DNA of 12,968 nt, from positions 1-12,968 of the IMG/VR virus record IMGVR_UViG_3300045988_034679. One strand, 5' to 3'. The DNA is from a virus. Each line of letters opens with the position of its first letter. The first letter of the stretch is position 1. The position numbers and the translations under genes are program-made. Shown piece after piece: positions 1-12,968 of the stretch. Under the pieces are notes generated by a model. That model was not told where the DNA came from and searched no databases. It saw only the letters and a program-made list of their open reading frames with translations.

Positions 1-173
1 GGGATTACCTAATAATATACTAATGATACGGCTTCCCCCATAAGCACAGCTAATGGCGAACCAACAGCCACAGCGGCCATGACCAGGACCGGCCGCGACC
101 TGGCCGCGACCTGGCCACGACTTGGCCACGACTTGGGCCACAGCGCCAGAGGCCGCAGCTCTTACGCCACGGC
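1..173. repeat. Left inverted terminal repeat (173 bp, perfect match to right end)
   Basis: Manual base-by-base reverse-complement comparison: 1-173 equals rc(12796-12968), with the first mismatch at 174 vs 12795. It begins GGGATTACC, followed by an AT-rich stretch (4-30) and then a GC-rich section with tandem repeats. Confidence 0.97.
91..134. repeat. Four tandem 11-bp repeats GGCC(G/A)CGAC(C/T)T inside the left ITR, with degenerate flanking copies
   Basis: The copies are ggccgcgacct (91-101), ggccgcgacct (102-112), ggccacgactt (113-123) and ggccacgactt (124-134). Degenerate copies are ggccatgacca (74-84) and gggccacagcg (135-145). The period is 11 bp, about one helical turn. Confidence 0.9.
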
Positions 174-189
174 AAGTTTGTTACCGTTT

Positions 190-215
190 TGTAATCAAAT
201 GTAATTATTTGTAAC
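190..215 (+). promoter_or_regulatory. Three TGTAA(T/C) motifs at exact 10-bp spacing upstream of the left promoter (possible regulator site, bend or UP-like element)
   Basis: The motifs are tgtaat at 190-195, tgtaat at 200-205 and tgtaac at 210-215, in AT-rich context just outside the ITR. Confidence 0.3.
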
Positions 216-225
216 TGGATACTAC

Positions 226-258
226 GGGCCGGAGTGGTATAATAATAGTGGGCCGGAG
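226..258 (+). promoter_or_regulatory. Left (early) promoter: extended -10 TGgTATAAT (235-243) bracketed by a 9-bp direct repeat GGGCCGGAG (226-234 and 250-258)
   Basis: A consensus TATAAT at 238-243 carries a TG at 235-236. No good -35 lies at 17-18 bp spacing, so the promoter would depend on the extended -10. It is the only promoter-like element between the ITR and the first gene. The direct repeats abut the -10 and the predicted +1. Confidence 0.5.
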
Positions 259-301
259 AGCGGCTCCGAGGGATACATCTGATATACAGGAGGAATTGAA
301 C

Positions 302-481
302 ATGAAATTGTATGATAAGAACACCGGCGTTGTTATTGCGGAGATCATTGCTAATCACAGTATGACCATTGATGATGCGCTGACCCTTATGCACTTTAGT
401 ATTGACGATGAGGGGCAAATATTTGATGACGATAACGGTGTCTATCTTGATGCATGGTATGATGATCTGGAACTGAAGTGA
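302..481 (+). CDS. Hypothetical small, highly acidic early protein (59 aa; 11 Asp + 3 Glu vs 3 Lys, no Arg)
   Basis: ATG at 302 follows a CAGGAGGAA RBS (288-296). The ORF-track start at 248 has no RBS. It is the first gene after the left promoter and has no recognisable motif. Confidence 0.6.
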   Translation: MKLYDKNTGVVIAEIIANHSMTIDDALTLMHFSIDDEGQIFDDDNGVYLDAWYDDLELK

Positions 482-489
482 GGTGTCAT

Positions 490-1167
490 ATGAAAGTATT
501 GATTGCTTGTGAGGAAAGCCAGACGGTTTGCAAGGCGTTCCGGGCGCTGGGACACGAGTCGTACAGCTGCGACGTGCAGGAGCCGAGCGGAGGCCGCCCA
601 GAGTGGCATATTTGGGGGGATGCGCTGGAGGCCGTCAAAGGCGGAGAGATCGTCACCATGGACGGACAGCGGCACGACATAAGCAAGTGGGAACTGCTGA
701 TCGCACATCCGCCATGTACCTATTTGAGTTCTTGTAGCGCTGTGCGTCTGTTTAACGCAGATCATACAGTCAGGGACTTGGCACGGGAGCGCAAGGGATG
801 GGTGGCAAAAGAGTTTTTCCTGGCGCTGCTGCGGTGCGGGGTGGAGCGGATCGCCGTGGAAAATCCCACACCGCTTCGGCATTTTGGATTGCCGAGATAT
901 GACCAGATCATCGAACCATATATGTTTGGGGATCCCTGGAGGAAGCGAACGTGTTTGTGGCTGAGAGGCCTTCCACCGCTCAGGCCCACCAACACGGTAG
1001 AGCCGAAGGGCCTGTGGGTGGGGGCCACCAGCAGACGGAGGGATGCTTCCAGGAAGGTACAATCCAAGTATGTGCTTAAATCGAATCGGGATAGTAAGAT
1101 CAGGGCAAAGACGTTTCACGGTATCGCCGCCGCTATGGCGGCGCAGTGGGGAGGTGATATCAGATGA
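490..1167 (+). CDS. Minimal C5-cytosine DNA methyltransferase-like protein (225 aa) with PPC and ENP motifs but an atypical motif I
   Basis: ATG at 490 follows GAGGTG (480-485). AHPPCTYL (PPC at 709-717) resembles catalytic motif IV. AVENP (ENP at 859-867) resembles motif VI (ENV). The N-terminal KVLIACEESQTVCKAFRALGHESYSCD looks like a Rossmann beta-alpha-beta ending in an acidic residue, but it lacks the FxGxG loop. The C-terminal TFHGIAAAMAAQWGG resembles the motif X region. The protein resembles a short phage family usually annotated as DNA cytosine methyltransferase. Confidence 0.6.
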   Translation: MKVLIACEESQTVCKAFRALGHESYSCDVQEPSGGRPEWHIWGDALEAVKGGEIVTMDGQRHDISKWELLIAHPPCTYLSSCSAVRLFNADHTVRDLARERKGWVAKEFFLALLRCGVERIAVENPTPLRHFGLPRYDQIIEPYMFGDPWRKRTCLWLRGLPPLRPTNTVEPKGLWVGATSRRRDASRKVQSKYVLKSNRDSKIRAKTFHGIAAAMAAQWGGDIR

Positions 1168-1367
1168 AATGCCCATGCACGAAAGACTGCCAGCACAGGA
1201 CTGTTAATTGCCGGTGCGTGTGTCGTGAATTTAAGGAATACGACCGGCAGCGCATGGAGGGCTATGTGGAGCGAGATCGCCAGCGGGCGAAGGCGCAGGC
1301 CCTGTCCCCGTTTAGCAATCCTCGATTTAACCGGTACGCACGACACAACAAAGAAAGAGAGGTTTAA
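1164..1367 (+). CDS. Hypothetical Cys-rich small protein (67 aa; C-x-C-x3-C-x6-C-x-C-x-C followed by a basic tail); possible zinc-binding nucleic-acid binder or regulator
   Basis: ATGA overlap with the upstream stop (1164-1167) and a GGAGGTG RBS at 1150-1156. There are six Cys in the first 20 residues, and the C-terminal half is Arg/Lys-rich. Confidence 0.55.
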   Translation: MKCPCTKDCQHRTVNCRCVCREFKEYDRQRMEGYVERDRQRAKAQALSPFSNPRFNRYARHNKEREV

Positions 1368-1368
1368 T

Positions 1369-1455
1369 ATGCTTATGTTAGCAATCACAGTATCCGCAGG
1401 TGCGGCGTGGCTATTACTAAAATGGTTGGAGGCTATCGAGTATGACGAAGAATAA
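1369..1455 (+). CDS. Possible 28-aa membrane micro-protein (MLMLAITVSAGAAWLLLKWLEAIEYDEE)
   Basis: ATG at 1369 lies 1 nt after the upstream stop, with AGAGAGG at 1356-1362. It has one hydrophobic helix and an acidic tail. It is very short, so coding status is uncertain. Confidence 0.3.
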   Translation: MLMLAITVSAGAAWLLLKWLEAIEYDEE

Positions 1456-1615
1456 AACCGGCGAACAGCCGTGTCCCTACAACATCGGCGTCAAGTGTGA
1501 TATCGGCGCTTGTGAGTGCGCCAGATGCGGCTGGTATCCCTTGGAGGCATACCGCCGCCGCAGGGACTTGCAGCAGAAGGGGGGCGCACCATATGGCCAG
1601 CAAGCCCAAAAGTAG
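1442..1615 (+). CDS. Hypothetical Cys-rich mini-protein (57 aa, below the ORF-track size cut-off): MTKNKTGEQPCPYNIGVKCDIGACECARCGWYPLEAYRRRRDLQQKGGAPYGQQAQK
   Basis: Hand-translated. ATG at 1442 lies 9 nt after GGAGG (1428-1432) and the stop TAG is at 1613-1615. The pattern is C-x7-C-x4-C-x-C-x2-C followed by an RRRR patch. It fills a stretch otherwise covered only by an RBS-less GTG extension of the next gene. Confidence 0.45.
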   Translation: MTKNKTGEQPCPYNIGVKCDIGACECARCGWYPLEAYRRRRDLQQKGGAPYGQQAQK

Positions 1616-2243
1616 TGTTCGGGGCCGTCGTGTCAAGTATTCTTTCCCGATCAGCGACTATCAGCTTCCCAGCGCCCTTGCAGAAAATTACAGCAAAAAG
1701 CAGCTGTTGTCCGAGTACAGGGCGCTGCGTATAGAAGCACAGGCCCGCTTGAAAGCGTTCCAAGGGACGAAATACGAGGGGAGTTATGCGTACCAAGCTA
1801 ACAAGCATTTTTTGGCCGGAGCATCATCCCCTTATAAATTAAACAAGCGCCAGCTGGCAGCGGGGCTGTCGGAGCTGGCCAGCTATCTGGAATCCCGAAC
1901 CAGCACACTATCCGGGACACGGTCGCAGGTGCGGAAGTCCATCAACACCTTTAAGGATCGCTGGGGTATGAACTGGCTGAACGAGGCCAATTATGAGGAG
2001 TTTACCAAGTTTTTGGAATTTGCCCGTGAATTGAAGGGGCAAAGGTATATCTTTGAGGAGGTCGTGGCCTTATACCGGAGCGCCAAATATTCGAAAATTC
2101 CTTTGGATCGTGTGAAAAGCAATTTCAATTTTTATTTGGATCAGATAGACATTACCGACGATCCAAACACAGCACGGCAATATCTCCGGCGAGATCCCAG
2201 TAAGCGGCGGAGCGCCAAAACTGTGAGAGGTAAGATGCGATGA
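1593..2243 (+). CDS. Terminal protein (replication primer) candidate, 216 aa
   Basis: ATG at 1593 follows a GAAGGGGGG RBS. Its stop overlaps the DNA polymerase start (ATGA at 2240-2243), the same TP-then-polymerase order and coupling as phi29 genes 3 and 2. The termini are basic (MASKPKSSVRGRR..., ...KRRSAKTVRGKMR) and the protein is predicted helical. No other unassigned protein of suitable size is present in the replication module. The assignment rests on synteny and elimination, not on a motif. Confidence 0.5.
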   Translation: MASKPKSSVRGRRVKYSFPISDYQLPSALAENYSKKQLLSEYRALRIEAQARLKAFQGTKYEGSYAYQANKHFLAGASSPYKLNKRQLAAGLSELASYLESRTSTLSGTRSQVRKSINTFKDRWGMNWLNEANYEEFTKFLEFARELKGQRYIFEEVVALYRSAKYSKIPLDRVKSNFNFYLDQIDITDDPNTARQYLRRDPSKRRSAKTVRGKMR

Positions 2244-4306
2244 AAACAACACCTATGGTGCGGGCCGCCGATGTTGACTTGGCATTTTTGATGCAAGTAG
2301 GGTTTGTCAAGCGTAAGCGAGGGAATCCGGCGAAAAAGCAAGAGCGTAAGTATCTGGACATCATTACAGCCTTTGACATCGAGACCAGCCACCACCCAGA
2401 ACGGGAGGAATCCCTGCTTTACGTCTGGCAGTGGCAATTTGGCGCCTTTTACACAGTCTATGGCCGCACATGGTCGGAACTGCGTTTATTCATCCAGCGG
2501 CTTCTCCGGGTGCTGGACGATCACGGCGATGTGTCTTTGGTCGTTCTGGTGCACAATTTGTCATATGAATTTCAGTTTCTGCGCGGCATTTATACATTTC
2601 AGCCGGATGAGGTTTTTGCCGTGGACTCCCGGCGCGTCCTGAAATGCACGATGGCCGACAAGCGCTTGGAATTCCGCTGTGCTATGCTGCACAGCAATAT
2701 GTCGCTGAAGCAGTATACAAAAAAGATGCACGTTGACCACCAGAAGCTGGACGGCGATGAATTTGACTACAAGGAACTGCGCTTTCCCGACACTCCATTG
2801 ACCGACCGGCAGCTGCAATACTGCCAGAACGACGTCTTGGGGCTGGTGGAAGCGTATCAGGCCGAAATGGCCAGAGATAAGGACAACCTTTATTCCGTCC
2901 CCATGACCAGCACCGGCTACGTCCGAAGAGACTGCAAGCGGGCAATGCGTTTTTGCTCCAGCAAAATGATCCGTGATTTACAGCCGGACGTGGAGCTGTA
3001 TAAAATGCTGCGAGAGGCGTTCCGGGGCGGTGATACACACTGCAACCGCCATTTTGCAGGTAAGGTGCTGGACAATGTCCATAGCGCAGATCGCAGCAGC
3101 AGTTATCCCGATGTGATGTGTAATTGCAAGTTTCCCATAGGCCGCTTTTACGCCTTTGACGGTGGTGTCGACCGTGCCATGGTTTTGTATCATCGTGGCT
3201 ATGCGCTGCTGCTGCGTGTCCGGCTGTGGGATGTGTCCTTGGCAGATCCGGCATGGGGGTTTCCGTATATCAGCTACGCCAAATGCCGGAATACGATCCA
3301 TCCGGTTTTGGACAATGGCCGCATCCTGTCGGCGGAGATGCTGGAGACTACGATCACAGATATTGATCTACGCATCATTTTAGACCAGTACGATTTTAGT
3401 GACATCGAGATCTTGACAGGCTACCACAGCAGATATGACCGGCTGCCGGCGCCGCTGGTGCGCTGCACCATCGACTACTACCAGACTAAAACAAGACTAA
3501 AGGGCGTGGTGGATGAACACGGCCACGAATCGCCCTTTTATAGCAAAAGTAAAAATTTGCTGAACTCCCTGTATGGCATGATGGCGCAGGATCCCGTGAA
3601 GCAATCCATATTGTTTGAAGAAGGCAGCGAATGGTTGTTCCGGCAGAAGGACGAGCCAATCGAGGATTTGCTGAACGCCAACAGTAAACGAGCGTTTTTG
3701 TGCTATCAGTGGGGCGTCTGGGTGACAGCTTGGGCGAGGTACCGACTGCAAGAGGGTTTGCGCATGGCCGACGGCGAACACAGCTGGCCTATTTACTGCG
3801 ATACCGACTCCGTTAAATACATTGGTGATGTGGACTGGGCGGAATATAACAAGAAGCGAATGGCCGACAGTCTACGTTCTGGCGCACACGCAACAGACCC
3901 ACATGGCGAGGAGCATTACATGGGCGTCTACGAGCAGGAGCATACGGCGAACCATTTTGTCAGTCTGGGAGCCAAGAAATACGTCACAGTTTATGAAGAT
4001 GGCAAATGCCGCTGCACCATCGCCGGAGTGAACAAGGAGAAGGGCGGCGCAGAACTTGACAAGCATGGCGGTATTACTGCTTTTAAGTCCGGCTTTTTGT
4101 TTGTGGACGCTGGCGGCACGGAGAGCGTTTATAATGACGATGTGGTGCCGCACACGGAGGAATGGCAGGGACATCGTTTTGAGATGGTGCCTAACATCCT
4201 GATTCGGGACAGCACCTATCGTGTCGGCATTACACAGGACTATGAGGACATCCTGAGCGATCCCGATTACTATTTACTGTGTAAGCACCGGTTCAGGGAT
4301 AAATAA
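2240..4306 (+). CDS. Protein-primed family-B DNA polymerase (688 aa)
   Basis: ExoI is FDIET (D46/E48). ExoII is HNLSYEFQF. ExoIII is YCQNDVLGL. Motif A is DRSSSYPDVM (compare phi29 DVNSLYPAQM). Motif B is KSKNLLNSLYGMMAQ (Kx3NSxYG). Motif C is YCDTDS (3794-3811). The KxY motif is GAKKYV. This order and these motif variants are typical of phi29-type polymerases. Confidence 0.95.
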   Translation: MKTTPMVRAADVDLAFLMQVGFVKRKRGNPAKKQERKYLDIITAFDIETSHHPEREESLLYVWQWQFGAFYTVYGRTWSELRLFIQRLLRVLDDHGDVSLVVLVHNLSYEFQFLRGIYTFQPDEVFAVDSRRVLKCTMADKRLEFRCAMLHSNMSLKQYTKKMHVDHQKLDGDEFDYKELRFPDTPLTDRQLQYCQNDVLGLVEAYQAEMARDKDNLYSVPMTSTGYVRRDCKRAMRFCSSKMIRDLQPDVELYKMLREAFRGGDTHCNRHFAGKVLDNVHSADRSSSYPDVMCNCKFPIGRFYAFDGGVDRAMVLYHRGYALLLRVRLWDVSLADPAWGFPYISYAKCRNTIHPVLDNGRILSAEMLETTITDIDLRIILDQYDFSDIEILTGYHSRYDRLPAPLVRCTIDYYQTKTRLKGVVDEHGHESPFYSKSKNLLNSLYGMMAQDPVKQSILFEEGSEWLFRQKDEPIEDLLNANSKRAFLCYQWGVWVTAWARYRLQEGLRMADGEHSWPIYCDTDSVKYIGDVDWAEYNKKRMADSLRSGAHATDPHGEEHYMGVYEQEHTANHFVSLGAKKYVTVYEDGKCRCTIAGVNKEKGGAELDKHGGITAFKSGFLFVDAGGTESVYNDDVVPHTEEWQGHRFEMVPNILIRDSTYRVGITQDYEDILSDPDYYLLCKHRFRDK

Positions 4307-4349
4307 TGTTAATAAGCTGGCGGGCTTTAACACGCAGAAAGGAAATAAT

Positions 4350-4631
4350 ATGAGAAACCGTAACACAACGAGCGAGACCAAGACCTACAATCACGAGTAT
4401 GTCGTGAGACGAGCAGTGCAGTTTGACAAGGACGTGCTGTTTGACCTGACCATCGACGACTTTACCATCTACGGCTGCCGTGTGGTGGAGGGCAAAAACG
4501 GCGACTTTATCAGCCTCCCCTCCCGCAAAGGGAAGGATGGGAAGTACTGGGGGATCGTCTACAAGCGCTTTAGTCAGGACGAAACAAGTCTGATCCTCGA
4601 CCTGGTCAGCGCCGCTCTGGCCGGGGTGTAA
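4350..4631 (+). CDS. SpoVG-like nucleic-acid-binding protein (93 aa)
   Basis: The core FDLTIDDFTIYGCRVVEGKNGDFISLPSRKGKDGKYWGIVYKRFSQDETSLILDLV parallels B. subtilis SpoVG [54 protein letters not shown], as I recall that sequence. The RV-x-x-G-x-NG-x-F-(V/I)-x-x-PS-(K/R) signature is shared. Confidence 0.7.
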   Translation: MRNRNTTSETKTYNHEYVVRRAVQFDKDVLFDLTIDDFTIYGCRVVEGKNGDFISLPSRKGKDGKYWGIVYKRFSQDETSLILDLVSAALAGV

Positions 4632-4633
4632 TA

Positions 4634-5680
4634 ATGAATCTTTACGACCGCCGAGGCTATCTGAACATTCCCGATATCCTAAAATGTAAGCAGCCGTTTA
4701 TTTTCGTGGTGGGCGGTCGTGGCACCGGTAAAACCTTCGGCGCACTGCGGGAAGCGCGTCGGAGGTATCGTGCCACAGGTGCGCGCTTTATGCTGCTCCG
4801 TCGGATGCAATCCCAAGTGGACTTGATAAACAAGCCGGAGTATTCGCCCTTTAAGGCTGTTGACCGTGTTGACCACCAGTGCACGGTCAGCAGATCGCTA
4901 AGCAAATACACGGCGGGTTTTTACGACGGCCAGCTGGACGAACACGGCACACCGCAGGTGACAGGGGATTGCATCGGGTATACCTGTGCGCTGTCCACCA
5001 TATCCAATATGCGTGGCTTTGATGCCAGCGACGTGGATCTGATTATCTTTGACGAGTTTATTCCCGAGGCACATGAACGACCAATCAAAAATGAGGCTGC
5101 AGCCCTGTTTAACGCATATGAGACGATCAACCGCAACAGGGAGCTGGACGGCGTTGCACCTTGTCAGCTTTTATGCCTTGCCAATGCCAATGACTTGGGC
5201 AATCCCGTGTTTTTGGAATTGGGGCTTGTCCGAAAAGCGGAGTCCATGCGCCGCAAAGGACAGGAGGTTTACATCGATCCCAAGCGGGGAATTTGTATGA
5301 TCATTTTGCAAAAGTCCCCCATTTCCCGTGAGAAAACGGCGACAGCATTATACAAGCTTGCAAAGGACGGAGAATACAATCAGATGGCCATTGGGAACAC
5401 CTTTGCAGGTGCCGGTGAAAACAGAATCCAATCCATACCACTACAGCAGCTGGTGCCGGTGGTGACCGTCGGGGAACTGACCGCATACCGCATCAAGGGC
5501 CAGAAGGATTATTATTTTAGTACGCATCCATCCGGGAATCCGCCGCATTACGGAACCGGGCCGTCCGAGCTGCGCCGTTTTAAGGTGACATTTTTGTGGT
5601 TGTGGGAGGCGTATATGCAGCGCCGTGTGGTATTCGAGGACCGCCTCTGCGAGATCTTGCTATTAAAATACTTGACATAA
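4634..5680 (+). CDS. DNA encapsidation (packaging) ATPase, phi29 gp16 type (348 aa)
   Basis: Walker A is FVVGGRGTGKTF (phi29 FVIGARGIGKSY). FMLLRRM matches phi29 FIYVRRY. Walker B is DLIIFDEFIPE (phi29 TIVFDEFIRE). NRNRE...LLCLANANDLGNPVF matches phi29 FRNRERVRCICLSNAVSVVNPYF. The size is similar to gp16. Confidence 0.9.
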   Translation: MNLYDRRGYLNIPDILKCKQPFIFVVGGRGTGKTFGALREARRRYRATGARFMLLRRMQSQVDLINKPEYSPFKAVDRVDHQCTVSRSLSKYTAGFYDGQLDEHGTPQVTGDCIGYTCALSTISNMRGFDASDVDLIIFDEFIPEAHERPIKNEAAALFNAYETINRNRELDGVAPCQLLCLANANDLGNPVFLELGLVRKAESMRRKGQEVYIDPKRGICMIILQKSPISREKTATALYKLAKDGEYNQMAIGNTFAGAGENRIQSIPLQQLVPVVTVGELTAYRIKGQKDYYFSTHPSGNPPHYGTGPSELRRFKVTFLWLWEAYMQRRVVFEDRLCEILLLKYLT

Positions 5681-5701
5681 TCCTTTGTGTTCTGGTATTA
5701 T
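5672..5701 (+). promoter_or_regulatory. Strong sigma-A/sigma-70-type promoter for the lysis and structural genes: TTGACA (5672-5677), 18-bp spacer, TGgTATTAT (5693-5701)
   Basis: It has a consensus -35, a near-consensus extended -10 and an AT-rich upstream stretch (tattaaaatac). It sits in the largest internal non-coding gap and shares the TGGTAT(A/T)AT core with the left promoter. Confidence 0.65.
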
Positions 5702-5706
5702 GTAAA

Positions 5707-5779
5707 GGAGGGAGGGCCGCACAATGTCAGCCCCGGAAGGGCGTGCGTGAGTTTGACAGACTCCTGATGCCCTCCCTCC
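5707..5779 (+). other. Predicted structured RNA at the 5' end of the late transcript: an 11-bp terminal helix closing a three-way junction
   Basis: GGAGGGAGGGC (5707-5717) pairs perfectly with GCCCTCCCTCC (5769-5779). Inner helix CGCAC/GTGCG (5718-5722/5743-5747) encloses the hairpin GCCC-cggaa-GGGC (5730-5742). A second small hairpin is GAGT-ttgacag-ACTC (5749-5763). The 5' arm starts at about the predicted +1 of the 5672-5701 promoter. Confidence 0.45.
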
Positions 5780-5803
5780 CAACAAAATAATCGAGGTGAC
5801 AGT

Positions 5804-6166
5804 ATGCGAGTCTATGTAATTGGCGTGGCAGTCTTTATTGTGGTGGACATCCTGTCCGGCCTGTTGAACGCGCTGTATAACAAAGAGTTCAAGTCTAGTG
5901 TGATGCGCAACGGGCTGTTCCACAAGGCGGGCGAATTTTTGGTCTTGGCCCTGCTGTATCTGGTGGAGATCGAGTCGGCGGCCATGGGCTTGGATGCGGG
6001 CCTGCCACTGTTTAAGACCGGCTGCGGCTATGTGGTGCTGATGGAGATCGGAAGCATCATCGAAAATTTGAAAGTGTTTACGCCAGGTATCGACAACATC
6101 ATCCGAAAGGAGACAGCAACCAATGGCAAAGAAAATTTTTCTGAGTCCCAGCGATCAGACGAGTAA
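5804..6166 (+). CDS. Holin (phage_holin_4_1 / TcdE-like family), 120 aa, three predicted TM segments
   Basis: GAGGTG RBS at 5793-5798. The hydrophobic segments are VYVIGVAVFIVVDILSGLLNALY, EFLVLALLYLVEI and GCGYVVLMEIGSIIENL. The VDxxSG...K...S...G...HK and E-x-x-S-I-x-EN motifs are typical of that holin family. It lies immediately upstream of the endolysin and overlaps it. Confidence 0.8.
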   Translation: MRVYVIGVAVFIVVDILSGLLNALYNKEFKSSVMRNGLFHKAGEFLVLALLYLVEIESAAMGLDAGLPLFKTGCGYVVLMEIGSIIENLKVFTPGIDNIIRKETATNGKENFSESQRSDE

Positions 6167-6794
6167 CCGGTACGCCTACGGCAACACCTCCGAGGCGATC
6201 CAGTGCGGCAAAATTGCGGTGGCACTGGAGGAGTCGCTGACACGCTGCGGCTTTGCGGTACGGCTTGTGCATTATCAGGATATGGCCACAAAATGTGCAA
6301 ATGCCGATGCATGGGGAGCAGACCTTTACATCCCTATCCACACCAATGCCTGCAACGGCGAGGTGTCCGGCACACGCATCTATACCTATGACAACACCGG
6401 AGAGGGCCGTAAGGCCGGACTGTGTGTCTATCACAATCTGGCGCCGCTGACACCGGGAAAGTCTGACAATATCAGCGCAGACGCCAGCCTGTACGAAATT
6501 CGCAAACCGGCGGCGCCGACCGTTTACTGTGAATGCGAGTTTCACGACGTCCCCGAGACGGCCCGCTGGATCATCACCCATACTAAAACTATCGCTGAAG
6601 CAATCTGCAAGGGCGTGTGCGAATATTTCGAGACCCCCTACAAGGCCCCGGACGAAGCGCCCAAAACCGAAACACTGTATCATGTACAAGTCGGAGCGTT
6701 CCGGGATCGGAAGAACGCCGAAAAAATGTTGGAATCCGTGAAATCACACGGATTTAAGGCTTTTATTAAGGAGGAAAAGCATGAAAGCAACTGA
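6123..6794 (+). CDS. Endolysin: N-acetylmuramoyl-L-alanine amidase (Amidase_3/MurNAc-LAA-like) with a C-terminal SPOR domain, 223 aa
   Basis: The N-terminal IFLSPSDQTSNRY...E...ADLYIPIHTNA...CEFHD pattern matches amidase_3-type zinc amidases. The C-terminal YHVQVGAFRDRKNAEKMLESVKSHGFKAFIKE (nt about 6675-6779) is a typical SPOR repeat. The start overlaps the holin 3' end by 44 nt. Confidence 0.75.
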   Translation: MAKKIFLSPSDQTSNRYAYGNTSEAIQCGKIAVALEESLTRCGFAVRLVHYQDMATKCANADAWGADLYIPIHTNACNGEVSGTRIYTYDNTGEGRKAGLCVYHNLAPLTPGKSDNISADASLYEIRKPAAPTVYCECEFHDVPETARWIITHTKTIAEAICKGVCEYFETPYKAPDEAPKTETLYHVQVGAFRDRKNAEKMLESVKSHGFKAFIKEEKHESN

Positions 6795-7125
6795 TATTAT
6801 CGCATTGGCAACTGCTGGCTACACGGCGGAGCAGATTGCCGTCATCGCAAAGGCTGCCAAGGAGCAGCCGGTACAGCAGCCGGTACAGCAGCCGGTACAG
6901 CAGCCGGTACAGCAGCCGGTACAGCAGCCGGTACAGCAGCCGGTACAGCAGCCGGTACAGCAGCCGGACGGTTATGCGGATCTGATGGGCAGGCTTGACG
7001 CACTGACCACACAGATCCAGCAAAGCGCTATCCAGCATAGCGCACAGCCCCCTGAGGATACGGCCGATGATATCTTGGCAAATATCATTGACCCGCCCGA
7101 ATTTCACCCGACAAACAGTAAATAA
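6781..7125 (+). CDS. Scaffolding protein candidate (114 aa) containing a perfect (PVQQ)x8 repeat
   Basis: AAGGAGG RBS at 6768-6774. It lies directly upstream of the capsid gene and has a size and position comparable to phi29 gp7. Helical N- and C-terminal parts are joined by the Q/P-rich repeat. The function is inferred from synteny only. Confidence 0.5.
   Translation: MKATDIIALATAGYTAEQIAVIAKAAKEQPVQQPVQQPVQQPVQQPVQQPVQQPVQQPVQQPDGYADLMGRLDALTTQIQQSAIQHSAQPPEDTADDILANIIDPPEFHPTNSK
6865..6967 (+). repeat. Perfect 12-bp tandem repeat CAGCCGGTACAG x8 plus a partial ninth copy (cagccgg)
   Basis: Read directly: copies start at 6865, 6877 and so on to 6949, and the partial copy is at 6961-6967. 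The repeat is in frame and encodes QPVQ units. Confidence 0.97.
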
Positions 7126-7137
7126 GGAGGTATAATT

Positions 7138-8352
7138 ATGGCTGGTGAAATGACTTTCAAACAGGCCGCCACGCTGCTGAACAGCATCCAGCAGCAGGCA
7201 ACCGGTCAGGCGGCATTGGTCGCAACTGACATCCACAGCTTTATCAGCTGCGCAACCACCACGTTGGCCACGGGCTATGATCCCGTGATCAACGCTATCA
7301 ATCAGGTGCTGACACGCACCATCTTTTCCACACGGCCCTATTCCCGCAAGTTTAAGGGGCTGGAAAAAACGGAATCCCAGTGGGGCAACCATGTCCGCAA
7401 GCTGTCCATTGCGGACAAGCCCGTCAGCGATGACGATCGCCACAAGTGGCCGGTGGCATATGATGCTACCCAGACCTCCAATCCGCTGGGCAACGGCCAG
7501 AGCGTAGACCAGGATGTCATCAACAAGCCGGAGATCCTGCAGACCAATTTCTACGGGGCCAATGTGTGGGAGGACTGGTATACGATCTTTAAGGATCAGC
7601 TTGACAATGCTTTTACCGGCCCCGATCAGCTGGGAAGCTTTATGGGCATGGTGGCGGGGAATATGTCCGATAAGCTGGAAAACATCCGGGAAAATATTTC
7701 CCGCGCTGCTCTGGCCAACTTTATCGGCGGCGTGGTCAACGAGGCGCAGGACGGCCGTGTCGTGCATCTGCTGACGGAGTACGAAGCGGCGACCGGCCTG
7801 AAGTTTAATACGCCGCAGGAAGTGTATCAGCCTGCCAACTTCAAAGCGTTCATCCAGTGGGCTTATGCCAGAATCGCCCAGATCTCTGACATGATGACGG
7901 AGCGGACGGAGTTGTTCCAGACGGTGGTCAATGGCAAGCACGTCATCCGGCACACACCAAAGGCCATGCAGCGGGCTTTCTTGTACGCTCCGGCTCGCCA
8001 TCAGATGAACATGATGGCCATCGCAGACACCTACCACGACGGCCTGCTGACCATGCCGGAGACGGAGACCGTCAACTTCTGGCAGTCGGCAGAGACACCC
8101 GACTCCATCAATATGAAGGTGGCCCGCATCGGCACCAATGGGGCCGTGACTGTGTCCACAGAGGCCATTGAACAGGCAGGGATCTTCGGCGTCATCATCG
8201 ACACCGAGGCCGTCGGCGTGGCCAACACCCAGAGCTGGAGCAATCCGTCTCCGTTCAACGCCAGAGGCGGCTATACCAACATCTGGATGCATGAAACGCA
8301 GCGCATCTACAACGACCACACGGAAAAGGGCGTTGTGCTGCTGCTTGACTAA
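7138..8352 (+). CDS. Major capsid protein (404 aa)
   Basis: It has the strongest RBS in the genome (AAGGAGG at 7124-7130). Its position is scaffold-capsid-tail as in phi29, and it is followed by a stable hairpin. There is loose resemblance to the N-terminal region of phi29 gp8 (..R....S.....KFKG...). The assignment rests mainly on synteny and size. Confidence 0.7.
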   Translation: MAGEMTFKQAATLLNSIQQQATGQAALVATDIHSFISCATTTLATGYDPVINAINQVLTRTIFSTRPYSRKFKGLEKTESQWGNHVRKLSIADKPVSDDDRHKWPVAYDATQTSNPLGNGQSVDQDVINKPEILQTNFYGANVWEDWYTIFKDQLDNAFTGPDQLGSFMGMVAGNMSDKLENIRENISRAALANFIGGVVNEAQDGRVVHLLTEYEAATGLKFNTPQEVYQPANFKAFIQWAYARIAQISDMMTERTELFQTVVNGKHVIRHTPKAMQRAFLYAPARHQMNMMAIADTYHDGLLTMPETETVNFWQSAETPDSINMKVARIGTNGAVTVSTEAIEQAGIFGVIIDTEAVGVANTQSWSNPSPFNARGGYTNIWMHETQRIYNDHTEKGVVLLLD

Positions 8353-8359
8353 TGCGCAA

Positions 8360-8384
8360 GGCCGGGCGGCTAAGCCGCCCGGCC
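8360..8384 (+). terminator. GC-rich hairpin after the capsid gene (partial terminator, attenuator or mRNA 3' stabiliser)
   Basis: GGCCGGGCGGC-taa-GCCGCCCGGCC forms an 11-bp perfect stem starting 8 nt after the capsid stop. It is followed only by a short ATTT, so the U-tract is weak. Confidence 0.5.
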
Positions 8385-8418
8385 ATTTACGAAGGTGGTG
8401 ATACATTTGTTTCCTGTA

Positions 8419-9792
8419 ATGCTATGGAAATTTTCCAAGACGGAAAACAGCACAAAGAGACCTTCGGACAGCGACTCCACCATGGTGGACTGCGAGACCA
8501 ATAACGACTTTGACCTGCTGCATCCGGTATTTGTGTTTAGCTTCCGTGGCGGCAGCAGCAATCCCACGCAGTATAATTACTGCTATGTGGGAACTTTTAA
8601 GCGGTATTACTGGATCACTGGGTGGACTTTTAGCAATGGCCAGTGGGTCGCTGATTGCACCGTGGACACGCTTGCCAGCTGGAAGCCGGATATTGGAGCA
8701 CTAAACGCATATGTTCTCCGATCCGCCGCAGAGTGGGACGGCAACATCATTGACAATATGTATCCGGCAAAGACGACTATTAGCACGGAACTGTCTGCCG
8801 GGGAGAAAAGCCCGTGGAGTACAGACCCTGAAAAAGGCACCTTTGTTGTGGGCATCATTGGGGCTGGGGCCACACAATATATCATGTTCACCAAGTCCGC
8901 CTTAGATTTATTTCTGAAGTACATTTTGTCGGATGCGTACGCAGTTAAGGCAATGGGGATATTGGGGTTTGCGACAAATAGTGAATTAAAAGCGGTGCTT
9001 GACCCCCTGCAATACATTTCCAGTATTGTATGGCTTCCGTTCCAAAAAGTCGGGTCTATCATTGACACTGTCAGGGTTGGCTATGTGGACGTGCCAGTGG
9101 CCGCAAGTAGTGTAGATTCGGGAATCGGATACGCAGAAATTAACTGGAATTTGCGGCGTCATCCCATGGCGGCAAGCCGTGGAGCCTATATGAACGCATC
9201 TATGGCGCACTACGATATGTTTTATCCGCCATTTGGTGTCATATCTCTGGATCCCGTGGTGTGCGCTAATACGGATACTATACATACGTTAGCCTTGGTA
9301 GATCTTAAAACTGGGCACGGCACGTTGATAGTCCAAACCAAAGAAGATAGGATTGTATCCCGAATCAGTGGCCAAGTTGGGATGGCATATCAGATCGGGC
9401 AGGTGACGGCCCCCGGATATGGTTTGGGCGCACTTGTTACTGATGCAATAGGCGTCGGCATGGCAGCGATTACTGACAACTACACCGGAACGATCGCCGG
9501 AGGGCTGTCCGCCATAGGAAACGCTGCCAAGGGGCGCATTCCAAGTGCTAATACCGTGGGCGGTGCTGGAGGCGCTGATCAGCTTCGAGGGATCCCCGCA
9601 ATGCTGTACGAATGGGAGATCCCAGTCGACGAAGATTTGACAGACAGGGGCAGACCTTTGTGCCAAGTACGGCGCATCAATTCGCTGCATGGATATGTTC
9701 TTTGTAGCGATGTTGAAGTTGATATACCGGCAACACAAAATGAAATTAGCGCAATTAAAGCATTCATGGAGGGGGGCTTTTACTATGAGTGA
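8419..9792 (+). CDS. Tail knob / distal tail tube protein (phi29 gp9-like), 457 aa
   Basis: The N-terminal block YNYCYVGTFKRYYWITGWTFSNGQWVADCTVDTLASW parallels phi29 gp9 [42 protein letters not shown], as I recall that sequence. It lies between the capsid and connector genes as in phi29. The start is uncertain: ATG at 8419 (MLWKFSKTENSTKRP) or TTG at 8407, 8 nt after GAAGGTGG. Confidence 0.65.
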   Translation: MLWKFSKTENSTKRPSDSDSTMVDCETNNDFDLLHPVFVFSFRGGSSNPTQYNYCYVGTFKRYYWITGWTFSNGQWVADCTVDTLASWKPDIGALNAYVLRSAAEWDGNIIDNMYPAKTTISTELSAGEKSPWSTDPEKGTFVVGIIGAGATQYIMFTKSALDLFLKYILSDAYAVKAMGILGFATNSELKAVLDPLQYISSIVWLPFQKVGSIIDTVRVGYVDVPVAASSVDSGIGYAEINWNLRRHPMAASRGAYMNASMAHYDMFYPPFGVISLDPVVCANTDTIHTLALVDLKTGHGTLIVQTKEDRIVSRISGQVGMAYQIGQVTAPGYGLGALVTDAIGVGMAAITDNYTGTIAGGLSAIGNAAKGRIPSANTVGGAGGADQLRGIPAMLYEWEIPVDEDLTDRGRPLCQVRRINSLHGYVLCSDVEVDIPATQNEISAIKAFMEGGFYYE

Positions 9793-9889
9793 TGCTAATA
9801 GACAAAGTCCTGCGCCAGTGCTGTCTGGAAAATTGCCTGTGTGGCTGCTGGCATATATCAAAAAAAGAAAACGGAGGCGAAAACTATGA
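9785..9889 (+). CDS. Possible 34-aa micro-protein (MSDANRQSPAPVLSGKLPVWLLAYIKKRKRRRKL) bridging the tail-knob and connector genes
   Basis: ATG at 9785 lies 7 nt after GGAGGGGGG (9769-9777) and overlaps the tail-knob stop. Its own stop overlaps the connector start (ATGA at 9886-9889). It has a hydrophobic core and a poly-basic tail. It is very short, so coding status is uncertain. Confidence 0.3.
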   Translation: MSDANRQSPAPVLSGKLPVWLLAYIKKRKRRRKL

Positions 9890-10800
9890 CCGGCGCACCA
9901 TACTTCTACGACTATCAAAACGCAATCATTTCCCGGACCACGCCTAACACTGTCCATGTCAAAAATGTTGGGCTGACACGGTTTTTCCAGCGCTATCTGC
10001 TGCAAAAAGCCATCAGTGTGTTCAAGTGGGATATGCCCCGCACATGGAGTCGGGACTATTTCCTGTATACCCTGTACTGCTGGGGCTTCGTCGCCATCGT
10101 CAACACGGACAAATTCGGCGTTATCCCGCAGGGCTGCGGCCTAAAGGGCTATAATGTCTTTTACCAGCCCCGATCAGTGATTATCCAAAATCCCCTTATC
10201 AGGCGAACGCTGGAACCGGAAATTGGGCGGAACTGTGTACTGCTAAAGCTGCAGCCGGATTTTTGCGGCATCATGGACTTGGTCAGCTTTTATGCGCAGG
10301 AGATGGCGCTGGCCTCCGAGGCGGTGGACGTCAATCTGCTTAACAGTAAGCTGTCCTATGTGTTTACGGCTTCCAATAAAAACGCAGCGGAGAGCCTGAA
10401 AAAGCTGTATGACCGTATCGCCAGTGGCGAGCCTGCCGTGGTGGTGGACAAGGCGCTGTATAATGATGATGGTACCGTGTGTTGGGAGGCATTCCAACAA
10501 AATGTCGGACAGAACTACATCGTCAGTGATCTCCTGTCCGATCTCCGCAAAATCGAGGCAGAATTTGACACCAAGGTTGGAATCCCCAACGCCAACACAG
10601 ACAAAAAAGAGCGGCTGATCTCCGACGAGGTTAATGCCAACAATGTGGAAACACGGAATCTCCCGGAGCTGTGGCTGGAATCCCTCCGGCTTGGATGTGA
10701 GGAGGCCCGCAAGATGTTTGGTATCGACTTGTCCGTGGACTGGCGCAATGATCCCGAGCAGGCCGTGCAAACCGAGGAGGTGCCCGACGATGAGGAGTAA
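9886..10800 (+). CDS. Head-tail connector / portal (phi29 gp10 upper-collar type), 304 aa
   Basis: GGAGG RBS at 9873-9877. FFQRYLLQKAISVFKWDMP...GFVAIV parallels phi29 gp10 [21 protein letters not shown]...GYVGFY. GIPNANTDKKERLISDEVNANNVE parallels [24 protein letters not shown]. The tail is acidic and the size is nearly identical to gp10. Confidence 0.9.
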   Translation: MTGAPYFYDYQNAIISRTTPNTVHVKNVGLTRFFQRYLLQKAISVFKWDMPRTWSRDYFLYTLYCWGFVAIVNTDKFGVIPQGCGLKGYNVFYQPRSVIIQNPLIRRTLEPEIGRNCVLLKLQPDFCGIMDLVSFYAQEMALASEAVDVNLLNSKLSYVFTASNKNAAESLKKLYDRIASGEPAVVVDKALYNDDGTVCWEAFQQNVGQNYIVSDLLSDLRKIEAEFDTKVGIPNANTDKKERLISDEVNANNVETRNLPELWLESLRLGCEEARKMFGIDLSVDWRNDPEQAVQTEEVPDDEE

Positions 10801-11317
10801 GCTATCTGTACTGGGCATCTATAACTATGACGGCCAGATTTTCGACCGGCTGGAGCTGCCGGACGGCGTTGACAAGGATACCGTGGTCAACAGTATACTG
10901 CTGGAGTGTGCCGATCTGGAGGTGCTGTATCCGGTGCCGGTCGTGCTGCAAACGGCCATCGGCTTGTGGTCTAAATCCATGCTGCCCAGCTGGGAACGCC
11001 AGTATCGGGCCATCACAGCGGAATACGATCCGATTGAAAACTACAACCGGATGGAAGATTGGACGGACACGGCACACTCCGAGGGCGCAGGCAGCAGCGA
11101 GGTGGCGGGCTTCGACAGCGGCAAAATGACACCAAGAGACGGCAGCCAGAGCGCCGCAGATTCCAACAGCGACCACCACGGACGCATCCACGGCAACATC
11201 GGCGTGACCACCTCAACGGCCATGGTGCATGAGGAAGTCAACCTTCGGCGCAAGCTATCCATGGTGGACATCATCGTCAACGACTTCAAAAGCAGATTCA
11301 CTCTGTTGGTGTATTAA
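10790..11317 (+). CDS. Structural protein, lower-collar / head-tail adaptor candidate (175 aa)
   Basis: ATG at 10790 lies 9 nt after GAGGAGG (10774-10780) and overlaps the connector 3' end by 11 nt. It occupies the gp11 position (after the connector, before the appendage). A conserved-looking block is LPDGVDKDTVVNSILLECADLEVLYP...WS...W...YDPIENYNRMED. The function is inferred from position only. Confidence 0.4.
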   Translation: MRSKLSVLGIYNYDGQIFDRLELPDGVDKDTVVNSILLECADLEVLYPVPVVLQTAIGLWSKSMLPSWERQYRAITAEYDPIENYNRMEDWTDTAHSEGAGSSEVAGFDSGKMTPRDGSQSAADSNSDHHGRIHGNIGVTTSTAMVHEEVNLRRKLSMVDIIVNDFKSRFTLLVY

Positions 11318-11329
11318 GGAGGTAACACA

Positions 11330-12784
11330 ATGGCGTTTGAACAATTCCCCTATACAAATTTACACGACCTCAACTTGGATTGGCTGTTGAAAACGGTCAA
11401 GGACACCAAGGACATTCTCGACAACACCGACATCCCGCAGCACGTCAGGGACGAACTCACTGTAATGTATAACGATGGGCGGCTGGAGAAGCTGGTCAAC
11501 GAGCGGATTCTGGCCGGAATACAGGCAAAGGTGGACGCCAACGCTGAAAGCATCGGGACGGCGAAGGAGGACATTGCAGCGAACGCGGAGGCCATCGGGA
11601 ACTTGAAGGTGACTGCAACGCTGGCGATGTTATCGGCACCAGACGCAGTGTCCGGTGATCCTGATCGTGGATATTCGCTGTGTATGGTGATCTACAACAA
11701 AGATTTCTGCGTCGTTTACGACCACGGCAATGACAGCGCAAACCGGCTGTTGGAGTATCTGCGGCAGAATGGCGTCAAGAAAATTACGGCATTCGTCGGC
11801 TCCCACTATCACAGCGACCATTGCACACTGGCGGGCGTTACGACAATTCTCAACAGCGGGATTCCTGTGGAAAAGTGGTATCTGCCTAACGGCGCCGTCA
11901 GTTGGGATGCATTCAAAGGCGTGAATTATCAGGCCGTACAGACCAGCATCAAGAATGCAATTACCGCCGCCGGCGGCGTGATCGTGGAGCCTGCCACGGA
12001 GGGAATGATGGTACAGGTGTCCAAAGCCGTCTATCTGGAGTTTTACAATGTTGCAGCACCAACCATCGCAGGGTATTACAACTACACGCTGGACGAGGAT
12101 TTGACCGACACCGGCAACACCAATTACAACAACTTTTCCATGTGCGCCCGGCTGCGAGTCGGGGACAAAATTCTGGCGCTGACCGGCGACATCGAAGAGC
12201 CTGCACAAGATAAGATGTTCCCCATCGTGCAGGGCGTGGACGTGATCCAGTTACCACACCACGGACTTGATCTCCGGGACAGCCACACCTTTATCCGTTC
12301 CATGGGAGCATCCGTCTATTTGACTGCGGCATATGGCATCGCAAGGTTTTACCGGCTGCAGTATCTCAGCAATGCGATGCTGCATAGGGCGATCATGTCC
12401 GGAAATTCCCTGTCCACGCTGGGCGGAAAAACCATCGAAATGGTATTTGGTTACAATGGATGCTATGTAACGGCGCCGGGGGCGCCCACGCCAATAGGGA
12501 CGTTTGGAGAAAGCATCCCGGCGGGCAGCGACTTCAACGACTATCGGGAAATCGGGTTTGCGGGGTATGTCCAGAATGCCAGCGTTGCGGCCAAGGTTGC
12601 CAATATGCCGGGGGCTTCTGGTGGCCGTCTCTGGGTAATAGCCAGCAACCAAAACAGCCAGCCTCACGGTAGTCTGGTGCAGGTATTCCTCCCTGCGTTT
12701 AGCTATGCGCACCCGGAGGTTAGTATTCGGATGCTGGATGATGACGCATGGAAGCCCTGGAAGACGTTCAAGACAGCCGACTGA
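11330..12784 (+). CDS. Tail appendage / receptor-binding protein with an embedded metallo-beta-lactamase-fold hydrolase domain (484 aa)
   Basis: AAGGAGG RBS at 11316-11322. The N-terminal FPYTNLHDLNLDWLLKTVKD is a fibre-anchor-type motif, followed by the repetitive AKVDANAESIGTAKEDIAANAEAIGNLK. The MBL motifs are SHYHSDH (HxHxDH, 11801-11821), NNFSMCARLRVGDKILALTGDIEE (12182-12199 covers TGDIEE) and IQLPHHG (12251-12265), as in ComEC-type MBL domains. The C-terminal 150 aa or so, ending ...GRLWVIASNQ...LVQVF...IRMLDDDAWKPWKTF, resembles fibre knob domains. Confidence 0.75.
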   Translation: MAFEQFPYTNLHDLNLDWLLKTVKDTKDILDNTDIPQHVRDELTVMYNDGRLEKLVNERILAGIQAKVDANAESIGTAKEDIAANAEAIGNLKVTATLAMLSAPDAVSGDPDRGYSLCMVIYNKDFCVVYDHGNDSANRLLEYLRQNGVKKITAFVGSHYHSDHCTLAGVTTILNSGIPVEKWYLPNGAVSWDAFKGVNYQAVQTSIKNAITAAGGVIVEPATEGMMVQVSKAVYLEFYNVAAPTIAGYYNYTLDEDLTDTGNTNYNNFSMCARLRVGDKILALTGDIEEPAQDKMFPIVQGVDVIQLPHHGLDLRDSHTFIRSMGASVYLTAAYGIARFYRLQYLSNAMLHRAIMSGNSLSTLGGKTIEMVFGYNGCYVTAPGAPTPIGTFGESIPAGSDFNDYREIGFAGYVQNASVAAKVANMPGASGGRLWVIASNQNSQPHGSLVQVFLPAFSYAHPEVSIRMLDDDAWKPWKTFKTAD

Positions 12785-12795
12785 TACAGCCGGAG

Positions 12796-12968
12796 GCCGT
12801 GGCGTAAGAGCTGCGGCCTCTGGCGCTGTGGCCCAAGTCGTGGCCAAGTCGTGGCCAGGTCGCGGCCAGGTCGCGGCCGGTCCTGGTCATGGCCGCTGTG
12901 GCTGTTGGTTCGCCATTAGCTGTGCTTATGGGGGAAGCCGTATCATTAGTATATTATTAGGTAATCCC
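12796..12968. repeat. Right inverted terminal repeat (173 bp)
   Basis: It is the exact reverse complement of 1-173. It begins 11 nt after the stop codon of the last gene. Confidence 0.97.
12835..12878. repeat. Mirror copy of the four 11-bp tandem repeats inside the right ITR
   Basis: The copies are aagtcgtggcc (12835-12845 and 12846-12856) and aggtcgcggcc (12857-12867 and 12868-12878). This is the reverse complement of 91-134. Confidence 0.9.

Follow-up and report, generated by a model that had tools for sequence, protein, structure and literature searches.

The catalytic bodies known from the appendages of phages that infect Gram-positive bacteria are beta-helix lyases and hydrolases, SGNH esterases and GDPD phosphodiesterases. 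In phi29 the appendage is formed by gp12, an enzymatic protein that processes teichoic acid, the wall polymer used as the receptor (PMC11476376), and in Bacillus phage GA-1 the equivalent gene closes the series 9-10-11-12, which encodes, in this order, the tail protein, the connector, the lower collar or adaptor and the appendage. The phiCP7R appendage, gp10, likewise has a beta-helix body, of the polygalacturonase type, and mass spectrometry has detected it in purified virions (PMC3362512). Here we describe the last gene, at positions 11330-12784, of a 12,968-bp phi29-like viral genome (IMG/VR record IMGVR_UViG_3300045988_034679, positions 1 to 12,968; this entire stretch is referred to below as the window). 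Its product occupies the position of gp12 and starts with the same type of N-terminal module, but carries in its middle a hydrolase domain with a metallo-beta-lactamase (MBL) fold, related to those of ComEC and Pce, where the classical appendages have the beta-helix.

The open reading frame (ORF) begins with an ATG and its stop lies 11 nt short of the right inverted terminal repeat (ITR) (Table 1). We recovered 55 full-length homologues of its product, all on 12-16-kb metagenomic contigs and with identities of 40-96%; a subset of 34, reaching down to 40% identity, was used for the family alignment and profile and for an AlphaFold2 model (mean predicted local distance difference test score, pLDDT, 85; predicted template modelling score 0.75), and the statements on invariant positions below refer to this subset. 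Model and alignment agree on the layout: the N-terminus MAFEQFPYTNLHDLNLDWLL precedes three helices (residues 11-31, 35-48 and 51-90), which are followed by an alpha/beta domain (93-382) and a terminal beta domain (383-484). The end of the alpha/beta domain was set at about residue 382, as the hairpin 362-382 is the usual terminus of ComEC-type MBL domains; since this hairpin belongs to the MBL domain, the remaining 383-484 constitute the knob. The division into a fibre-type N-terminus with a coil, an MBL domain and a C-terminal knob, as given in the initial annotation, is thus recovered in all its parts by model, alignment and motifs.

The N-terminal module ties the protein to the appendages. 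By hhalign, residues 23-110 of the family profile correspond to residues 56-149 of the pre-neck appendage of phiCP7R (probability 95.5%, E 1.5e-8), and a weaker alignment (57%) is obtained with GA-1 gp12. Relatives also match phrog_17212, annotated as pre-neck appendage protein, which the window sequence alone did not reach at E 0.01. The alignment with phiCP7R stops where the beta-helix starts in that protein and the MBL domain starts in the window protein, which supports, at the level of module homology, the replacement of one catalytic body by another. Thus, the earlier suggestion that an MBL enzyme stands in the place of the picovirus beta-helix gains a concrete counterpart, in that the same N-terminal module is borne by a beta-helix appendage, and we regard this replacement as well supported by the sequence comparisons. 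Residues 51-92, the most variable segment, presumably form a trimeric coiled-coil stalk.

The genomic position agrees with this assignment. The last four genes of the window, namely the gene at 8395-9792, the connector gene, a 175-residue gene and the appendage ORF, mirror the GA-1 order 9-10-11-12, and because the gene order follows that of GA-1 the ORF falls in the appendage position as the last gene before the right ITR. Taken together with the N-terminal homology, this supports the identification of the window protein as the appendage or fibre of this phage, equivalent to gp12. It shares with phi29 and GA-1 gp12 and with phiCP7R gp10 the location after the lower collar, the homologous anchor and the helical stalk, but differs from them in having an MBL domain instead of a pectate-lyase-type right-handed beta-helix as its body and in ending in a knob, with no evidence in the window protein of the auto-cleaved C-terminal chaperone.

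The central domain belongs to the ComEC/Pce clade of the MBL fold. It matches Pfam Lactamase_B (PF00753) with 25.9 bits against a gathering cut-off of 22.7; a search of the PDB with the single sequence returns Pce/CbpE as the best match (E 2e-4), and a search with the family profile places ComEC (E 2e-9) and Pce (E 4e-7) on top. A Foldseek search with the AlphaFold2 model recovers Pce (2bib/1wra, E 1e-14) and the MBL domain of Moorella ComEC (9ic4, E 2e-12), which bears out the ComEC/Pce-type fold claimed at the outset; at least 50 MBL structures match at E below 1e-3, with those other than Pce and ComEC at E 3e-7 or worse, five orders of magnitude behind. The ComEC models of NCBIfam give weak matches, far under threshold and confined to the MBL part.

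The motifs of the domain form a mosaic. Motif II has the HxHxDH form of Pce and of canonical Zn enzymes, whereas the motif III Asn, TGDIE and PHHG are ComEC-like. The initial annotation had described the motif set as complete: this holds for HYHSDH, LTGDIEE and LPHHG, all of which are present, but not for the canonical motif III histidine, which is absent (there is no His between residues 165 and 309) and in whose place NYNNFSM is found. Asn instead of this His is also seen in catalytically active ComEC domains (PMC8579336). All metal ligands are invariant in the family, as had been proposed for checking; D131, H159, H161, D163, H164, N265-M271, D287, E289 and H310/H311 do not vary, and neither does a set of aromatic and acidic positions (W183, W192, Y249, Y250, Y252, E256 and D257). 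Among close relatives, identity is 87-96% in the MBL domain but 69-82% in the knob and 45-81% in the coil. Invariant ligands in the part that is best conserved among close relatives make up the pattern of a working enzyme; the conservation indicates purifying selection on it, and an intact and conserved metal site of the ComEC/Pce clade is supported by these comparisons.

Pce/CbpE (2BIB, 1WRA) is the best structural match and a top PDB sequence match, shares the canonical HxHxDH motif II and acts extracellularly on the Gram-positive envelope, and its combination of an MBL domain with choline-binding repeats recurs in a phage homologue, susfortuna gp7, described below. In contrast to Pce, to which it is 15-16% identical, the window protein has no Choline_bind match, its MBL domain is built in between the anchor with its coiled coil and a C-terminal fibre knob, and its motifs IV-V (TGDIE, PHHG) are ComEC-like. 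The C-terminal MBL domain of ComEC/Rec2 (9IC4, 9VCB) belongs to the same clade, shares the motif III Asn, TGDIE and PHHG as well as the fold (E 2e-12) and also acts outside the cytoplasm; but the window protein has neither the competence channel domain nor the OB fold, shows HxHxDH as against HxDxDH (PMC8579336, PMC12455585) and, after HHG, Leu as against the Ser of the ComEC sequences compared, and is acidic, the MBL domains of the family having net charges of -4 to -17. We rejected the assignment to the ComEC family that GenBank labels imply, since Pfam detects neither a channel domain nor an OB fold; the name late competence protein, given there to phage homologues, is a misnomer.

The C-terminal domain, modelled alone, forms a separate beta domain (pLDDT 88) with the fold of known fibre knobs. 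Its counterparts include the knobs of the R1 and R2 pyocin fibres (6cl6/6cl5; template modelling score, TM, 0.70; root mean square deviation 2.2 A), with further matches in the tail fibre of P68, in Gp45 of phi11 and in the receptor-binding protein of 80alpha (6iab, 5efv, 6v8i), for an overall TM range of 0.59-0.71; the knob-like character read from the sequence is hence confirmed by structure comparison. It matches phrog_3971 (E 4e-5), and a search with its profile recovered 902 representative proteins (E up to 1e-3) among 1.8 billion. Most of these are 500-1900 residues long with 2-8 tandem copies of the domain, and those that were scanned match PHROG families with the names tail fibre, minor tail or tail protein. 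Whereas the R-type pyocin, phi11 Gp45, 80alpha and P68 tower or knob proteins have tandem copies followed by a receptor-binding foot or head, the same fold occurs in the window protein as a single C-terminal copy of about 100 residues. The knob may contribute to receptor binding, although by analogy with other fibres this type of domain is often a structural shaft or knob module. The domain type represented by phrog_3971, of about 90 residues, has no Pfam family although it is a common fibre module.

Relatives of the window protein show module exchange. Two proteins from syntenic 13-kb phages (P0056 and P0057) have the identical first 22 residues and a similar helical region joined to an unrelated body that gives weak matches to CHAP or NlpC/P60, and they are likewise encoded by the last gene. 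Another set (P0046-P0055) keeps the MBL domain and the knob and has a different N-terminus, while two more distant proteins (P0087, P0093) show the full anchor, MBL and knob layout again. Thus, in some related phages the anchor is constant and the body differs, and in others the MBL domain with the knob is constant and the anchor differs. As to provenance, one relative comes from a sample labelled XIAO16 and some unannotated phage-database matches come from human faecal samples; a gut origin of the family is plausible. Distant MBL-and-knob homologues (27-36% identity) also lie near the ends of two contigs of metagenome-assembled genomes (MAGs), binned to Solibacillus (L007, 16.4 kb) and to Lachnospiraceae (L008, 23.6 kb), and both contigs probably represent additional small phage genomes that were wrongly binned with bacterial sequence.

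Homologues of the MBL domain are also found in cultured phages of Clostridium perfringens. One of them is susfortuna gp7 (L002, 2220-4013), which aligns with residues 21-363 of the window protein (BLASTP E 3e-10, about 22% identity). Its first 140 residues share homology with the N-termini of the GA-1 gene 12 product and of the pre-neck appendage proteins in about 40 records of C. perfringens picoviruses, and this region matches phrog_17212. In the Susfortunavirus gp7 the HYHSDH-type MBL domain is followed by choline-binding or cell-wall-binding repeats (Choline_bind_3, 28.5 bits against a cut-off of 27), and phiQ_19 (L001, 1916-3763) has the same layout of appendage anchor, MBL domain and choline-binding repeats. 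In GenBank the Susfortunavirus proteins are entered as late competence protein or as hypothetical, a misleading label; the corresponding slot of the sister phage DCp1 is annotated as BppU, in a region reported to be highly divergent (PMC9965233).

In siphophages the domain occurs on other anchors. In the C. perfringens siphophage PhiS63, gp16 (L005, 6452-8353) has the MBL domain fused to BppU_N, is encoded between Tal and the tail fibre, and is labelled BppU family baseplate upper protein, its note reading metallo-beta-lactamase family protein. For phiCP26F gp21 (L006, 6890-7954) the label is tail protein and the note metallo-beta-lactamase superfamily. Proteins of the phiCP39-O type bear the label endopeptidase-endolysin, and that of vB_CpeS-1181 the label minor structural protein. 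By tblastn the same MBL subfamily is present in 42 phage records, and the MBL part has matches at E 1e-12 to PHROG 7043, named tail protein, and to PHROG 14556. Two strong matches in BFVD, of 940 and 354 residues, have the sizes of the phiCP39-O-type and phiCP26F-type proteins. The C. perfringens proteins (susfortuna gp7, PhiS63 gp16 and phiCP26F gp21; PHROG 7043 and 14556) thus share with the window protein the HYHSDH subfamily and the succession of anchor, MBL domain and distal module, but they differ in their identity of about 22%, in distal modules that are choline-binding repeats or others and not a knob, in the BppU_N anchor of the siphophages, and in the GC content of Clostridium phages, about 28-35% as against 53% in the window. 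To judge from these sequences, the MBL domain behaves as a cassette that moves between tail architectures, i.e. the picovirus anchor, BppU_N and the tail modules of phiCP26F and phiCP39-O.

Beyond the architecture, the homology of each module, the ligand conservation and the module exchange, all of which are observed, we propose with moderate confidence that the window protein is a gp12-equivalent appendage whose MBL domain cleaves a phosphoester or phosphodiester in a glycopolymer of the host cell envelope. The appendage would most likely be a homotrimeric fibre carried on the virion: the N-terminal helical module would dock it on the collar, the coiled coil would space it from the tail, three MBL domains would be borne on the stalk, and the C-terminal knob would close the trimer and may add to binding. 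The MBL domain is predicted to be a catalytically competent binuclear-metal hydrolase of the ComEC/Pce clade. Its candidate substrates are wall teichoic acid and lipoteichoic acid, in which it could attack a phospho-substituent or a linkage of the backbone, and a surface polysaccharide that contains phosphodiesters. The virion would bind and process its primary receptor with this enzyme and work towards the wall, which is the role of the beta-helix enzyme in phi29-type appendages.

An envelope phosphoester is favoured as the substrate for several indirect reasons: both characterised relatives, Pce and ComEC, are phosphoesterases that act outside the membrane; the Susfortunavirus homologue joins the MBL domain to choline-binding repeats, following the domain logic of Pce; the PhiS63 MBL domain is fused to the BppU_N baseplate anchor; and the classical appendage that has been replaced is itself an enzyme processing the wall polymer used as receptor. 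The closest analogues with functional support are the GDPD proteins in the tails or baseplates of Lactobacillus, Enterococcus and Staphylococcus phages, virion-associated phosphodiesterases that are thought or have been shown to attack teichoic acids (PMC10194240); they have some biochemical support but are TIM barrels, unrelated in fold to the MBL.

Several observations weigh against this proposal. We found no biochemical or proteomic evidence for the window protein or any of its homologues: a literature search returned no study that discusses, purifies or assays an MBL-fold phage tail protein, and no MBL protein is in the virion mass-spectrometry set of PMC3362512 (phiCP7R) or in PMC3118219, PMC3442830, PMC9033094 and PMC9965233. 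The identity to Pce is just 15-16%, with ComEC, a proven Mn-dependent nuclease, about equally distant, and the C-terminal half of the domain (NN.S, TGDIE, PHHG) is nearer to ComEC than to Pce in sequence. Choline-binding or other recognised wall-binding repeats are absent from the window protein, and an acidic enzyme is not an obvious fit for the polyanionic backbone of teichoic acid. The CHAP- or NlpC-like bodies in the same slot of the relatives would also allow a role in wall penetration rather than in receptor processing. Finally, the three relatives found in genome collections, the only ones there, are on MAG contigs binned to Solibacillus, Lachnospiraceae and Aeriscardovia, a taxonomically inconsistent set.

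The closeness to ComEC raises the question of whether the substrate is DNA. For the MBL domains of ComEC, Mn-dependent endo- and exonuclease activity has been proven (PMC8579336, PMC12455585). ComEC comes first in the PDB profile search (E 2e-9) and second among the fold matches, the motif III Asn, TGDIE and PHHG are of its type, and the weak NCBIfam matches point in the same direction; a virion-borne nuclease might thus cut extracellular or biofilm DNA, or host DNA at entry, and clear the path to the cell. However, DNA is disfavoured because the MBL domain is acidic throughout the family, because neither an OB fold nor another module for DNA binding is present in the window protein, and because motif II is not of the Mn-type HxDxDH. 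The second of these points gains from the finding that the isolated ComEC MBL domain shows no measurable DNA binding without its OB fold (PMC12455585). Furthermore, Leu is invariant after HHG, as against the Ser of HHGS in the ComEC sequences compared, a Ser that may be the substrate-contacting S728 of M. glycerini ComEC; and in the homologue from C. perfringens phages the domain is joined to repeats that bind the cell wall. We therefore hold a nuclease to be unlikely, albeit the best placed of the alternatives.

A related question is whether the bond attacked is a phosphoester at all. The MBL superfamily covers many hydrolytic chemistries (PMC12455585), deacetylating and esterase tail fibres exist in other phages, and the leaving group is not fixed by the present evidence, so that an O-acyl esterase, a sulfatase or another MBL-type activity might modify a capsule or wall polysaccharide receptor. 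Against this, phosphoester hydrolysis is the activity of both clade members that have been characterised, Pce and ComEC, and the ligand set agrees with theirs; a hydrolase of non-phosphate bonds appears improbable in this clade, coming just after the nuclease in our ranking.

The relatives with other bodies in the appendage slot bring up a different role, that of a wall-penetration enzyme at the tail tip or collar, analogous to phi29 gp13, which might for instance cleave the phosphodiester linking secondary wall polymers to peptidoglycan so that the tail reaches the membrane. No tail-associated peptidoglycan hydrolase analogous to gp13 is recognisable in the window, while syntenic relatives encode a Phage_lysozyme2 protein between the tail protein and the connector (L003, 7836-8456; L004, 7827-8456) in addition to the CHAP- or NlpC-like body in the appendage slot, and the Susfortunavirus MBL gene adjoins a gp13-like gene, morphogenesis protein C. 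The phage with the MBL appendage may accordingly cross the wall with a set of enzymes different from that of its syntenic relatives. Yet the N-terminus is homologous to anchors of the gp12 type and not to gp13, the coiled-coil stalk and terminal knob are fibre features, and the gene is in position 12; a gp13-like function is in our view quite improbable.

Some receptor-binding proteins have turned an enzyme fold into a binding domain, and the MBL pocket might by the same token recognise a phosphorylated ligand without catalysis, leaving the fibre a pure adhesin. This is very doubtful when set against metal ligands and a bridging Asp that are invariant over the 34 sequences, in what is the most conserved part of the protein. 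Last, an intracellular anti-defence role, as an Apyc1-like cyclic-nucleotide phosphodiesterase encoded at the genome end, was rejected as scarcely credible: the Apyc1 structure 7u2r is among the Foldseek matches (E 2.6e-6), but 8 orders of magnitude weaker than Pce or ComEC, and the MBL domain, far from being a stand-alone MBL of about 250 residues, has an appendage anchor before it and a fibre knob after it and is encoded within the late structural block.

The remainder of the window is that of a phi29-like phage, with a PolB polymerase, gp16 ATPase, Phi29_MCP and connector as markers. It represents the whole linear genome, since perfect ITRs of 173 nt are found at both ends (1-173 pairing with 12796-12968). 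At 12,968 bp it is very small among tailed phages; its GC content is 53% and every substantial gene is on the plus strand. Each ITR contains about five tandem copies of an 11-nt unit (83-141; 12828-12878), which could be origin or terminal-protein-related binding sites. The first gene past the left ITR encodes a DNA methyltransferase, probably with an anti-restriction function. The SpoVG-like and packaging ATPase genes (4350-5680) sit between the polymerase and the lysis genes, unlike in phi29, where gene 16 is last; SpoVG-like genes are present in C. perfringens picoviruses too (PMC3362512). Despite the phi29-type gp16 ATPase, an Rfam scan of the window recovered no member of the prohead RNA (pRNA) family, even at E up to 1. 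The only notable Rfam match, isrG, lies far under threshold and was rejected as an artefact of a 12-nt tandem repeat, 8.8 perfect copies of which (6863-6967) encode the (QQPV)n tract of the 114-residue ORF. Searches of the PDB with the 465- and 175-residue proteins that flank the connector gave no match. The latter, by position, is the probable attachment partner of the appendage.

Table 1. Coordinates of the appendage gene, its domains and motifs, and the neighbouring features in the 12,968-bp window
Feature	Position	Strand	Remarks
DNA methyltransferase	478-1167	+	phrog_757, E 3e-51
Protein-primed type B polymerase	2240-4306	+	
SpoVG-like protein	4350-4631	+	
Packaging ATPase, phi29 gp16-type	4634-5680	+	
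Holin	5804-6166	+	
Endolysin, Amidase_3 and SPOR	6123-6794	+	
114-residue ORF with (QQPV)n, in the scaffold position before the capsid gene	6781-7125	+	
Capsid protein, Phi29_MCP	7138-8352	+	
465-residue gene in the tail-protein (gene 9) position	8395..9792	+	by position only, no family match
Upper collar connector (gene 10 equivalent)	9841..10800	+	phrog_2038, E 1e-37
175-residue gene in the lower-collar (gene 11) position	10790..11317	+	by position only, no family match
Shine-Dalgarno sequence AAGGAGG	11316..11322	+	7 nt upstream of the ATG, read from the sequence
Coding sequence of the MBL-bearing tail appendage, 484 residues and stop	11330..12784	+	last gene, gene-12 position
N-terminal anchor, residues 1-50	11330..11479	+	first 22 residues identical in P0056 and P0057
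Long helix, residues 51-92	11480..11605	+	most variable segment, length differs among homologues
MBL-fold hydrolase domain, ComEC/Pce clade, residues 93-382	11606..12475	+	Pfam, PDB searches, AlphaFold2, Foldseek
Motif II, HYHSDH (H159, H161, D163, H164), residues 159-164	11804..11821	+	invariant in 34 homologues
NYNNFSM, residues 265-271	12122..12142	+	invariant; Asn in place of the motif III His, ComEC-like
LTGDIEE, residues 284-290, with D287 as the motif IV bridging Asp	12179..12199	+	D287 invariant
Motif V, H310-H311 within LPHHG (residues 308-312)	12257..12262	+	invariant
C-terminal fibre knob domain (beta sandwich), residues 383-484	12476..12781	+	phrog_3971, separate model, fold matches
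Right inverted terminal repeat	12796..12968	.	3' boundary of the appendage gene, partner 1-173

Enzymatic receptor-binding proteins set the host range of phages and serve as tools, for instance as depolymerases and in diagnostics. The protein described here does not represent a new sequence class, as MBL-bearing tail, baseplate and appendage proteins are already annotated for cultured C. perfringens phages; in this respect the initial annotation overstated its novelty, the homologues being present in GenBank, RefSeq and PHROGs, although we found no paper that characterises one of them.

More tentatively, we put forward the wider idea that MBL-fold phosphoesterases form a distinct and widespread class of enzymes that are carried on the virion and process the receptor, in phages infecting Clostridia and other Firmicutes of the gut. 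Their cassettes would be swapped between picovirus appendage anchors and siphovirus BppU baseplate anchors, and adsorption would require them to remove or cleave phospho-substituents of teichoic acids or wall polysaccharides, be it phosphocholine, phosphoethanolamine or phosphodiesters of the backbone. This would be a new mode of adsorption beside the glycosidase and lyase tailspikes, the SGNH esterases and the GDPD enzymes. As homologues are present in the cultured phages susfortuna, CPD7, phiQ and PhiS63, the hypothesis is directly testable. If the MBL domain is indeed an active phosphoesterase of the virion, it would represent a new chemistry directed against teichoic acids or phosphorylated wall polysaccharides. 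It would further account for a gene that recurs in C. perfringens phages considered as therapeutic candidates, where it is mislabelled as late competence protein, hydrolase or endopeptidase-endolysin, and it would provide a handle on the receptors of the abundant uncultured 13-kb picovirus-like phages of the gut.

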